A stretch of DNA of 64,000 bases, from the IMG/VR virus record IMGVR_UViG_3300045016_000151, positions 18,078 through 82,077 of that record. One strand, written 5' to 3'. How positions within the stretch are numbered: position 1 is the first letter of the stretch; every line of letters starts with the position of its first letter. This document shows positions 26,530 through 28,334 of this stretch, one piece after another. The DNA comes from a virus (taxonomy: Duplodnaviria > Heunggongvirae > Uroviricota > Caudoviricetes). The notes beneath the pieces are model-generated. The model worked only from the letters and a program-made list of their open reading frames with translations, was not told the origin of the DNA and did not search any database. The position numbers and the translations under genes are program-made.

Positions 26530-26775
26530 ATGTATAAAAAACGCAGTATAGCAGTAAATGTTTTAAAATTACCAAACGGTAATTATCAACTAATCGATAC
26601 ATTCGGCAGGAAAGAAGAAGTAACTCCGGTCGAATTCCACAGATATGTAGTACCTGACCATACCTCTCCCGAAGTCAAAAACGTCGACATGAAAGATGAA
26701 TTACAACAAATTTATTCGTTCATACAGTCTGGGGACATAGAGAGCGCTAGCGCAAAGTTGGAGCTTCTACTTTAA
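26530..26775 (+). CDS. Hypothetical small protein upstream of the retron-type RT
   Basis: ORF track; no recognisable RBS. Confidence 0.35.
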   Translation: MYKKRSIAVNVLKLPNGNYQLIDTFGRKEEVTPVEFHRYVVPDHTSPEVKNVDMKDELQQIYSFIQSGDIESASAKLELLL

Positions 26776-27072
26776 TTATAGTTATTCGGTGAAGACCTCC
26801 CGATAGAGACGCGTTACGCGTTTTCGACACATAGTAACTAAGAACGATTAAATAAAAGACGCCCCGTAGAGTATAATATAAAGATTACAGAAGTTTCACC
26901 TTCTATAGCTTTATTCGTAAAAACGAAAACAAGTGCGCTACGTACTATGTATATTACTGACTTCATATTATCACGATGGAAATTATCCGCCGCAATACAC
27001 ATTGCGGAGGACCAATTTCTAGTATGGAAGGGTGAAGGGTGGAAGATCTTCTTCCACCTATTTTTTTTACTT
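26776..27072 (+). ncRNA. Candidate retron-type non-coding RNA (msr/msd-like) region. Interrupted 10-bp hairpin at 26986-27012; strong hairpin GGTGGAAGA-TCT-TCTTCCACC followed by T8 at 27040-27068
   Basis: Placed immediately upstream of, or overlapping, the 5' end of the RT gene, as in known retrons. The structures are read directly but the boundaries are not resolved. Confidence 0.3.
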
Positions 27073-27963
27073 ATGACTATTTTTGAATTTTTAGAACTAG
27101 ATAGGGAAGAACTAGCTAAACTAGATATCCCGCGAAATTATATCACTTTTTATATTGTAAAAAGTAATGGTAAGCGAATGCGTCGAATAGATGCTCCGCT
27201 GCCAAGATTAAAAGAGATTCAAAAACAAATATTACACAAACTCATATATAAATTTAAACCACATGAACTTGCGCATGGGTTTGTCGTAAATCGTAATCCT
27301 GCTACTAATGCTCAACAACATGTAGGAAAGAAATTTATTGTAAAAGTAGATATAAAAAACTTTTTTCCTTCTATAAAAACACATCAAGTGGATGCATTGA
27401 TACGCCATTTAGCCATAAGATTATCTTTAACTTGGGATATTATTGATACAGCGTTAATAGCTAATGTATTGTGTTTCAATGGCTCTTTACCGCAAGGATC
27501 CCCTGCATCGCCCGCAATAACCAATCTCATATGTTACGCGCTGGATGTGGATCTGGCAAAATTACAATATTCGAATTCCTGTATAATTACTAGATACGCG
27601 GATGACATCACAGCATCCACCGACACATATAAAAATGCGCTCCAAGCAAAATATATGATTATACGGACATTACGACAGTACAATTTTGTATCAAATAGAT
27701 TAAAATTACGTATTGTGGGGAATCACAAACGACAAAAGGTTACAGGTATTGTAATAAACAACAAACTAAATACAACAAAGGAAACATGGAGAAATCTAAG
27801 AGCGGCGATACACAATTTGTCCGGTGGGAGCATTTCGGAAAAGGTATATCAACAATTGCGCGGGAAGATAGAGTGGCTGAAATCATTGAACCCAGCCAGG
27901 GGAGAGAAGCTGTTGTCAGAACTTACAAAAATAAGTGTGAACAAGCTTTCGACAGCTACCTAA
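26947..27963 (+). CDS. Retron-type reverse transcriptase. Motifs: NAQQH (retron NAxxH), VDIKNFFPSI, LPQGSPASP, YADD, VTGIVIN (retron VTG). The start may instead be the ATG at 27073
   Basis: RT motifs 1-7 are readable. The NAxxH and VTG motifs are diagnostic of retron RTs. Size (about 300-340 aa) is similar to Ec86 RT. Confidence 0.8.
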   Translation: MYITDFILSRWKLSAAIHIAEDQFLVWKGEGWKIFFHLFFLLMTIFEFLELDREELAKLDIPRNYITFYIVKSNGKRMRRIDAPLPRLKEIQKQILHKLIYKFKPHELAHGFVVNRNPATNAQQHVGKKFIVKVDIKNFFPSIKTHQVDALIRHLAIRLSLTWDIIDTALIANVLCFNGSLPQGSPASPAITNLICYALDVDLAKLQYSNSCIITRYADDITASTDTYKNALQAKYMIIRTLRQYNFVSNRLKLRIVGNHKRQKVTGIVINNKLNTTKETWRNLRAAIHNLSGGSISEKVYQQLRGKIEWLKSLNPARGEKLLSELTKISVNKLSTAT

Positions 27964-28076
27964 AATTAGGATTGTCCTACCTAAAACTGCCTTTAATATC
28001 AATAGGTCTTTATAACACAATAGACGGTCCCAGGGTTCTTTATACAGGTTCTGAGAACAGCGTTCTATTAACAAGT

Positions 28077-28334
28077 ATGCAGTTCATTATTGAGTTTAGT
28101 TTGGACAGAACTATCGAAGTATATATGCAACGTATGTATTTGCAGCAGGTAATTACAAAATTTTATGGTGGGCATTACACACCAACAAGAGGATTCCACT
28201 ATTTGCTAAAAACTAACAAATCTACTGGAATTCAGATACATATTAGTTCATTATCACAGTTTGAAAAAGCTGTAGATGCACTTATAAAAGAAGCAAATCG
28301 CTTCATGTACATGTATTGTCGTACAGATATATAA
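28077..28334 (+). CDS. Hypothetical small protein (about 85 aa) directly downstream of the RT; a candidate retron accessory or effector. The longer track ORF 27786-28334 overlaps the RT
   Basis: Position only. Confidence 0.3.
   Translation: MQFIIEFSLDRTIEVYMQRMYLQQVITKFYGGHYTPTRGFHYLLKTNKSTGIQIHISSLSQFEKAVDALIKEANRFMYMYCRTDI

Follow-up and report, generated by a model that had tools for sequence, protein, structure and literature searches.

A retron-class reverse transcriptase preceded by predicted template RNA units in a lineage of uncultured huge phages

The locus described here lies in a 64,000-nucleotide stretch of a viral genome of the class Caudoviricetes (IMG/VR record IMGVR_UViG_3300045016_000151, positions 18,078 to 82,077). 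This whole stretch is referred to below as the window, and its own numbering is used throughout. The locus comprises a reverse transcriptase (RT) gene, three tandem RNA units upstream of it and two small protein-coding genes, one of which overlaps the RT gene. We consider it to be a genuine retron, inherited vertically as a block in a clade of uncultured huge phages, and we assign a probability of about 0.75 to this reading, which was reached by comparison of sequences. Retrons have been studied as bacterial anti-phage systems consisting of one RT, one template RNA and one effector, and genome-editing methods that produce DNA inside the cell are built on them; retrons in temperate phages (retronphages) are not unprecedented.

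The reverse transcriptase gene and its conservation

27073-27963, + strand: retron-clade RT gene, 296 amino acids (aa), start taken from an alignment of 25 homologues

A first-pass annotation, made from the letters of this DNA alone, had described a retron-like RT carrying the motifs NAQQH, YADD and VTGIVIN. All three motifs are present (NAQQH at 27307-27321, YADD at 27595-27606 and VTGIVIN from 27739), and the residues N79, A80, H83, Y175-D178, T224 and G225 are invariant in the alignment of 25 members of the RT family. The long open reading frame (ORF) 26947-27963 (338 aa), delimited by an ORF finder, is over-extended at its 5' end. The true start is the ATG at 27073 (MTIFEFL); an equivalent start is present in all 24 homologues, and the PADLOC alignments to the RT all begin near residue 44 of the 338-aa ORF. 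With the start at 27073, the two hairpins that had been noticed near the 5' end of the gene therefore lie upstream of it, as had been said, and not inside it, so that the overlap between hairpins and RT that the annotation also described did not stand.

Among the best 25 of 74 PADLOC matches to the RT, all 25 are retron RT models, with E values from 3e-71 to 7e-48. They include RT_XIII (3e-71), RT-Protease_XI (4e-65), RT_III-A (6e-65) and RT-TIR_XII (3e-60), followed by models of types X, II-A, I-C (RT-Toprim_I-C, E ~1e-57) and others. In NCBIfam, the model retron_St85_RT scored 217 bits, just below its cut-off of 235 bits, and retron_Ec67 scored 197 bits, whereas the non-retron models reached 61 bits (group II intron RT), less than 36 bits (Drt) and 24 bits (AbiA). 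The Pfam search of the 296-aa protein matched the RT domain alone (RVT_1, E 2e-20), with no fused effector domain and no maturase or endonuclease domain. By profile scores and motifs the RT is placed in the retron clade, in agreement with the class named in the first-pass annotation. It cannot be assigned to a retron type, because the scores for many types are nearly equal. The top PADLOC score suggested type XIII, an assignment that was rejected: the match to this longer model falls into two parts, other models score almost as high, and the partners of this type are absent.

Relatives of the locus were found by an alignment-based scan; a scan of viral contigs with the single protein gave nothing, and a near-identity DNA search of a phage collection returned no match to the window. 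An identical copy of the RT is present on a 215-kb contig, and members of the RT family, of about 300 aa and with 37-55% identity, are encoded on long viral contigs. The gene order MoxR, vWA, non-coding stretch and RT is kept down to 37% RT identity, and in nearly all family loci, including those with other downstream genes, the MoxR-vWA pair stands directly before the RNA and the RT. Because this order is kept over such a range of identity, we conclude from the comparison that the RT is stably inherited in a huge-phage lineage and is not a gene of a sporadic island. A 61-aa gene (orf61), an 81-aa gene (orf81), a 300-aa gene and a vault-like gene, all described below, are common to a closer subfamily only.

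Predicted template RNA units upstream of the RT gene

A comparison of about 35 related phage loci (designated L and a number) shows that the RNA upstream of the RT follows the msr-msd grammar of retrons. The plan of a unit is a first arm (a1), an unpaired G, a stem-loop 1 (in many units), a conserved hairpin, a variable msd segment, AG and a second arm (a2). Inverted repeats a1/a2 with an unpaired G were searched for and found, and they covary across the relatives. Where the first-pass annotation had one structured RNA, the window contains three tandem units on the strand of the RT (U0, U1 and U2), followed by a terminator-like hairpin and then by the RT. Their parts are as follows.

26209-26532, + strand: U0, a long, GC-rich unit with a1/a2 arms of 10 bp
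26209-26218, + strand: U0 a1, TATAGCTATA, followed by the unpaired G at 26219
about 26228-26247, + strand: U0 stem-loop 1
26250-26272, + strand: U0 conserved hairpin, TTCTATTGCG-TTA-CGCAATGGAA
26273-26522, + strand: U0 structured multi-hairpin body of ~250 nt, GC content up to 61% against a background of ~33%
26523-26532, + strand: U0 a2, TATAGCTATG, preceded by TG and overlapping the ATG of orf81
26775-26877, + strand: U1, a short unit identified by a strict descriptor scan and a covariance model
26775-26780, + strand: U1 a1, ATTATA, followed by the G at 26781
26806-26824, + strand: U1 conserved hairpin, GAGACGCG-TTA-CGCGTTTT
26870-26877, + strand: U1 AG and a2 TATAAT
26899-27031, + strand: U2, the best-defined msr-msd unit
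26899-26907, + strand: U2 a1, CCTTCTATA
26908, + strand: predicted branching G of U2
26914-26927, + strand: U2 stem-loop 1
26932-26946, + strand: U2 conserved hairpin, AGTGCG-CTA-CGTACT
26977-27021, + strand: U2 msd stem, with a core at 26986-27011
27021-27022, + strand: U2 AG, followed by a2, TATGGAAGG, at 27023-27031
27037-27068, + strand: terminator-like hairpin of 10 pairs and T8, between U2 a2 and the ATG of the RT

The intergenic region 26776-27075 folds with z = -4.4 against shuffles, and U2 alone (26896-27036) with z = -5.7, so the two hairpins noticed in the first pass are real structures beyond chance. The minimum-energy fold of U2 contains the a1/a2 stem, the unpaired G26908, stem-loop 1, the conserved hairpin, a single-stranded spacer and the msd stem; with a bulge, the a1/a2 stem extends to 26896-26907 / 27023-27035. 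The interrupted hairpin (26986-26996 / 27001-27011, 11 nt, 91% complementary) fits the role of msd stem that had been proposed for it. The second hairpin (arms of 9 bp at 27038-27046 / 27050-27058, then T8) had been proposed as a candidate 3' end structure; it stands beyond a2 and has the look of an intrinsic terminator and not of the 3' end of an msd. It is the strongest terminator-like site in 25800-28600, and a hairpin with a T-run before the ATG of the RT is also present in L003, L004, L006, L007, L009 and L011.

U0 folds with z = -2.9, and its equivalent positions hold units in L001, L003, L007 and L011; in L008, a U0-type unit shows compensatory changes in a1/a2. The GC-rich island within U0 became intelligible only with the recognition of the conserved hairpin and of the a1/a2 arms on either side. 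Folded alone as a separate RNA (26240-26490), the island is unremarkable (z = -1.1 and -0.7), and this candidate was dropped. It was also rejected as protein-coding: six-frame translations had no match in the relatives, and no conserved reading frame was found in U0. A further candidate, TATAGCTA as a general phage promoter, was dismissed, as the motif is not enriched in the window and its nearby + strand copies are only at both ends of U0. Short units equivalent to U1 begin at the stop codon of orf81 in L001, L003 and L007, and covariance-model matches suggest that L004 and L011 carry a unit at the same position. No Rfam family was matched by U0, U1 or U2, either at the gathering threshold or at E values up to 10.

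The position of the units was analyzed with a script that sought a stem with G after the 5' arm and AG before the 3' arm, at a score of at least 8. Of the 34 family loci, 19 have such a1-G...AG-a2 stems upstream of the RT, compared with 13.5% in other segments of the same loci and with none of the 34 reverse complements. The a1/a2 arms are wholly different between loci, apart from a conserved Y-A/G that precedes the G and a conserved T-R that follows the AG. The conserved hairpin is topped by YG-N3-4-CG in all 30 units examined (the top reads YG-NWW-CG), and the stem below it has 1-9 further pairs, variable between units. Covariation of a1/a2 and hairpin was scored in 29 units, in which 94% of cells pair (score 0.90, compared with 0.28 in shuffles and 0.11-0.17 with slid partners); this count is inflated because the units were selected by complementarity. 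The unpaired G after a1 was a requirement of the scan; it is also seen in the independently selected U0 units and in Ec67.

Two controls are free of that bias, namely the enrichment by strand and position and a held-out covariance model. The model was built from the 5' module (a1 tail, G, spacer and hairpin) of 37 units, none of them from the window, and was run without filters on both strands of the full 64 kb. Its first-ranking match in the window is U0 (26211-26272; 29.7 bits, E 2e-5), the second is U2 (26900-26950; 22.4 bits, E 0.003) and the sixth is U1 (26773-26826; 17.9 bits, E 0.056); beyond the RT locus, the model found no further units in the window. In 23 loci, mostly those of the seed, 42 of 48 matches are on the strand of the RT. 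The strict descriptor found the three distinct units within 830 nt, 2 elsewhere in 128 kb and 1.5 per shuffle. A palindromic hairpin at 60414-60490 (AATTACG-TAT-CGTAATT, with the YG-NWW-CG top) was matched weakly by the model on both strands (E 0.02-0.03); as no credible a1/a2 arms surround it, this is probably due to chance.

The same grammar was observed in a known retron. The sequence that we take to be the template RNA of Ec67 matched 14 E. coli genomes at 100% over annotations of Ec67-family RT genes. Its plan reads GGCA, G15, the hairpin GGTTGTG-AAT-CGCAACC, and then GGAG before TGCCTGCATGCGT, and G15 is the G directly after a1, that is, at the same position as the G of the phage units. 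In Ec67/Eco2, multicopy single-stranded DNA (msDNA) synthesis is primed at the 2'-OH of G15 (PMC12916289). The covariance model also matches upstream of the RT in L057, an Ec67-family RT-Toprim (703 bits over 572 positions), where the RNA reads AGCATGCAGGCA, G, 9 nt, AGTTGTG-TTT-CGCAACT and, further on, AG before TGCCTGCATGCT. Because the grammar is common to the Ec67 template, G26219, G26781 and G26908 are predicted to be branch points. Ec67/Eco2 (type I-C1) thus resembles the phage locus in having a1, a priming G, a hairpin topped UG-AAU-CG, msd, AG and a2, and in an RT of a related clade, as the retron_Ec67 score indicates. It differs in its RT-Toprim fusion of ~570-590 aa with one non-coding RNA (ncRNA), whereas the phage RT is unfused and only its RT domain was matched, so that the Toprim fusion of type I-C is absent. 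The phage locus further departs from Ec67 in its three units, its overlapping partner gene and its huge-phage carrier.

Related loci contain from one to six template units. Six diverged units, each with its own a1/a2 and msd, are located within 1.1 kb in L014, and three units each are present in L015, L017, L001, L003 and L007; the layout U0-orf81-U1-U2 is common to the window, L001, L003 and L007. The covariance model detected more units on the same strand 1.7-3 kb downstream of the RT in distant family members (L029 5697-6541, four units; L027 5292-5802; L030 3360-3695; L032 5529-5995; L092 4015-4631; L028 5639; L026 5607). Up to four of them stand in a row, with a spacing of 240-290 nt, and such relatives may carry template units at more than one site of their genomes. 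To our knowledge, all described retron types have one ncRNA per RT, and the departure from that rule makes the present locus a variant. Natural arrays of distinct units served by one small RT thus appear to exist; a preprint that mentions 'ncRNA array' and 'retron' (10.64898/2026.09.22.753630) may be a prior description of them. In engineered tandem msr-msd arrays, one RT uses several units on one transcript (PMC10370050). These 'multitrons' resemble the phage locus in their tandem units served by one RT; they are synthetic repeats of one msr with different donors, whereas each phage unit has its own a1/a2, hairpin stem and msd.

Partner genes, genomic setting and known systems

27873-28334, + strand: ORF-X, ~153 aa, in frame +2 relative to the RT, with an overlap of 91 nt with the 3' end of the RT gene
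26530-26775, + strand: orf81, 81-aa protein between U0 and U1, conserved in the closer subfamily

The small ORF that had been noted downstream of the RT (28077-28334) exists, and it is in fact the C-terminal part of the longer ORF-X. The start of ORF-X is GTG 27873 in the window and ATG in most relatives, and it lies within the codons of the RT motif I-E-W: the Met arises from GAA TGG read as ATG G. Conservation in frame +2 runs upstream past the stop codon of the RT as far as this Met, which is directly preceded by a stop codon in L004, L006, L008 and L014. An alternative in-frame start is ATG 27786; the gene call of the Joint Genome Institute (JGI) is exactly the 153-aa product (P0121). A similar ORF (133-214 aa, frame +2, starting at or near the same position) is present in 27 of 35 loci, with EANRFMYMYC or a similar motif at the C-terminus. 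Its start inside the RT gene makes translational coupling of ORF-X and the RT probable.

Searches with ORF-X gave no matches in Pfam, PADLOC, PHROGs or NCBIfam, and only weak matches to PDB sequences that were judged non-significant; a match to a 1291-aa repetitive surface protein (P0130) was dismissed as compositional. The structural model has a secretion-chaperone-like fold; it is of moderate quality only, with a mean predicted local distance difference test (pLDDT) score of 62 and the N-terminal 65 residues unmodelled. This model points to a small binding or adaptor protein and not to an enzyme or a pore.

The small upstream ORF 26530-26775 was confirmed as a real conserved protein, orf81. 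Its start codon is inside U0 a2 and its stop codon inside U1 a1; two RNA units (U1 and U2) separate it from the RT, and the third (U0) precedes it. It has no match in Pfam, PHROGs or NCBIfam and no fold match; one PADLOC match was weak and sub-threshold, and the matches to PDB sequences were weak and judged non-significant. In profile searches, no toxin domain (nuclease, TIR, protease, Toprim or other) was found in ORF-X or orf81.

The best-scoring PADLOC RT models belong to retron types XI, XII and XIII, which are RT-protease, RT-TIR and RT with WH-SWIM and HEAT/ARM partners, respectively (PMC7736814, Mestre et al. 2020). The phage RT, unlike those of types XI and XII, has no protease or TIR fusion, and domain searches of the flanking ORFs found none of the type XIII partners (WH-SWIM and HEAT/ARM-repeat proteins). 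Type VI retrons (Retron-Vpa2) have a small toxin ORF inside a single hybrid RNA closed by a1/a2, and a helix-turn-helix (HTH) antitoxin. They resemble the phage locus in that a small coding sequence is interleaved with the template RNA and has its start region in RNA pairing, but orf81 is placed between separate units instead of within a single a1/a2 stem; domain searches revealed no HTH protein at the phage locus. Retron-like RTs are already on record in Staphylococcus jumbo phages. One of them, gp206 of the virulent jumbo phage MarsHill, is likewise retron-like, with a long upstream non-coding stretch and no recognizable effector; it is ~28% identical to the phage RT, has 501 aa with an N-terminal extension, is accompanied by an RNA that is not defined, and belongs to an unrelated phage lineage. 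Taken by sequence, all the features of a retron are found in the RT and the RNA, with the exception of the rule of one ncRNA per RT. The locus departs from all described retron types in its template arrays, its overlapping partner of a new family and its huge-phage carrier.

Upstream of the RNA units, the MoxR ATPase (20977-22122) is matched at E 3.5e-46 by the Pfam model bpMoxR, whose title is 'MoxR domain in the MoxR-vWA-beta-propeller ternary systems'. The vWA gene (22119-26025) consists of three exons (22119-23378, 24528-24623 and 25816-26025), and is uninterrupted in L001 (513 aa). Its two intervening sequences, of ~1.15-1.2 kb, each contain an ORF for a DUF559/Vsr-like endonuclease (23406-24350 and 24667-25644), and the 3' part of the second matches a group I intron model (25600-25792, 54 bits, E 2.5e-12). 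In an Rfam scan of the whole intron region this match was lost; the endonuclease ORF is inserted in the intron. Between vWA and U0, orf61 (26028-26213) encodes a CxxC-containing protein of 61 aa, with an identity of 83% in L001 and 62-73% in L003, L007 and L011, far above that of its neighbors; its family search gave no significant match, only a sub-threshold one in Pfam (E 0.033).

Right after ORF-X, the 300-aa protein (28485-29387) contains a CxxCxxC cluster, matches radical-SAM weakly (E 6e-4, below the cut-off), and is 62-72% identical in the closer subfamily. The next gene encodes a 279-aa protein (29399-30238) with zinc-ribbon repeats, a DUF559-like C-terminus and a match to an HNH endonuclease PHROG; it has no counterpart at this position in the relatives and is probably a free-standing homing endonuclease. 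The 826-aa vault-like protein (30770-33250) contains major-vault-protein shoulder and repeat domains (E 9e-27) and is 42% identical to proteins of the huge phages LR756500, LR756501 and LR756503 (462-735 kb; 735 kb for LR756501 and LR756503). A 2026-aa ORF at 13602-19682 (- strand) encodes fused RNA polymerase beta and beta' domains, and a 4936-aa ORF is located at 43746-58556 (- strand); both are hallmarks of this huge-phage lineage. The only Rfam/ARAGORN match in scans of the window was a tRNA-Ala (TGC) at 2361-2434, which may be of use in predicting the host.

Proposed mechanism and possible roles

By analogy with Ec67/Eco2, the RT would dock on the conserved hairpin of each unit and prime synthesis from the 2'-OH of G26219, G26781 and G26908. 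Copying of the msd would start at the AG adjoining a2, which would give msDNAs with CT at the 5' end, and up to three different branched msDNAs could be made, of at most about 250, 48 and 75 nt. With less confidence, we suggest that the terminator would make the RNA more abundant than the RT message, and that ORF-X, translationally coupled to the RT, might bind the RT-msDNA complex or a target protein.

Several points weigh against the interpretation as a retron. The msDNA and its 2'-5' branch are predicted from the sequence and not visible in it. U1 has a weak closing stem (6 A-U pairs) and a marginal model score (E 0.056); U0 has TG instead of AG before a2, and its 250-nt multi-hairpin body is unlike a typical msd and may be reverse transcribed partly or not at all. 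On a single sequence, a loose descriptor performs no better than chance (19 matches, compared with ~12 in shuffles), and the covariation count carries the inflation mentioned above. The terminator-like hairpin between RNA and RT departs from a simple msr-msd-RT operon. Plain synteny may account for the proximity of MoxR-vWA, the quality of the ORF-X model is only moderate, and no recognizable effector was found, which leaves the tripartite logic of retrons incomplete.

If the hairpin units were independent of the RT, they could be phage small RNAs, transcription signals or replication-origin repeats, and the terminator-like hairpin that separates them from the RT, the extra units 1.7-3 kb from the RT in some relatives and the lack of an Rfam family would fit. 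We regard this as very improbable, since the grammar is that of the Ec67 template RNA, including the priming G and the hairpin top, and the units keep to the strand of the RT, cluster shortly before its gene and, in the 64-kb window, are present only at this locus. The chance that the RT belongs instead to a group II intron, a diversity-generating retroelement (DGR) or an abortive infection (Abi) or defense-associated RT (DRT) system is practically negligible, even though DGR RTs are common in phages and self-splicing introns are present in the window. Its score against the group II model is 61 bits, compared with 217 for a retron model, and those for Drt and AbiA are lower still; group II intron RNA was absent from the Rfam matches in the window; a template/variable repeat pair is lacking, as the upstream RNA has no match of at least 17 nt elsewhere in the window; the protein has neither a maturase nor an endonuclease domain. 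What was found is an RT outside the group II intron, DGR and Abi clades, with msr/msd-like repeats upstream of it.

For a retron carried by such a phage, we tentatively favor, at rather less than even odds, a function in phage-side conflict (decoy or counter-defense, or exclusion of competitors) over a classical abortive-infection toxin-antitoxin retron, because no toxin domain was found, the carrier looks virulent, the position is fixed and the units and msd segments turn over fast. A classical tripartite defense retron would serve superinfection exclusion, with RT-msDNA restraining a toxic ORF-X and/or orf81 until a competing phage disturbs the complex, whereupon the cell would die or the competitor be blocked. 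All characterized retrons have been described as toxin-antitoxin-like defense systems that include a neighboring partner gene (Mestre 2020); the coupling of ORF-X to the RT is tight, and the toxin of type VI is a small protein embedded in the template RNA. In the phage locus, orf81 is wedged between units with its ATG inside U0 a2. We nevertheless find this role unlikely: neither ORF-X nor orf81 has a toxin domain and the fold predicted for ORF-X is that of a chaperone-like binding protein, it is doubtful that a virulent phage, dependent on its cell, would profit from abortive infection, and the module has a fixed position across a deep phage clade, unlike sporadic defense islands. A counter-defense device, in which msDNAs or RT-msDNA-ORF-X complexes mimic or sequester host factors, is conceivable but doubtful; examples would be stand-ins for the msDNA antitoxins of host retrons, or decoys for sensors or nucleases that act on single-stranded DNA or branched nucleic acids. 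The number of units (1-6) and the msd sequences diversify fast while the parts recognized by the RT stay fixed, no toxin is present and the ORF-X model suggests a binding protein, the huge-phage carrier looks virulent, and some relatives have further arrays elsewhere. The idea is purely inferential, however; a search with the msd segments as antisense or DGR-like templates gave no significant match to other parts of the window, and msd sequences vary freely in ordinary bacterial retrons too. A housekeeping role together with MoxR-vWA, in which msDNA would prime or scaffold replication, packaging or particle assembly, is improbable. It would account for the fact that no linkage in the family persists as far as MoxR-vWA-RNA-RT, which is kept despite changes in the downstream genes, and MoxR-vWA pairs have been proposed as assembly chaperones in other viruses (PMC7824862). 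Against it, ORF-X is absent in 8 of 35 loci and the number of units ranges between 1 and 6, variation that an essential core mechanism would not usually show, and conserved gene order is general in these phages. We know of no msDNA function of the housekeeping kind.

Within the favored phage-side conflict, a more specific and rather speculative proposal is that the RT and its overlapping adaptor turn the template array into a repertoire of msDNAs used against the host, either as stand-in antitoxins or as decoys that silence retrons or nucleic-acid-sensing defenses.

On the retron interpretation, a retron is retained as a stable genome component across a deep clade of uncultured huge phages, and multi-unit arrays with one small RT, so far only engineered, appear to occur in nature. 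It also brings to light an overlapping partner gene, ORF-X, that standard gene callers truncate or miss. The Ec67-type grammar (a1, G, YG-NWW-CG hairpin, AG, a2) provides a simple rule for finding templates in metagenomes. If msDNA synthesis is confirmed, these loci would offer compact, naturally multiplexed sets of RT and templates for biotechnology, and one would have to ask to what use a virulent phage puts reverse-transcribed DNA. Should the counter-defense repertoire prove true, reverse-transcribed DNA would here be a weapon of the phage and not of the bacterium.

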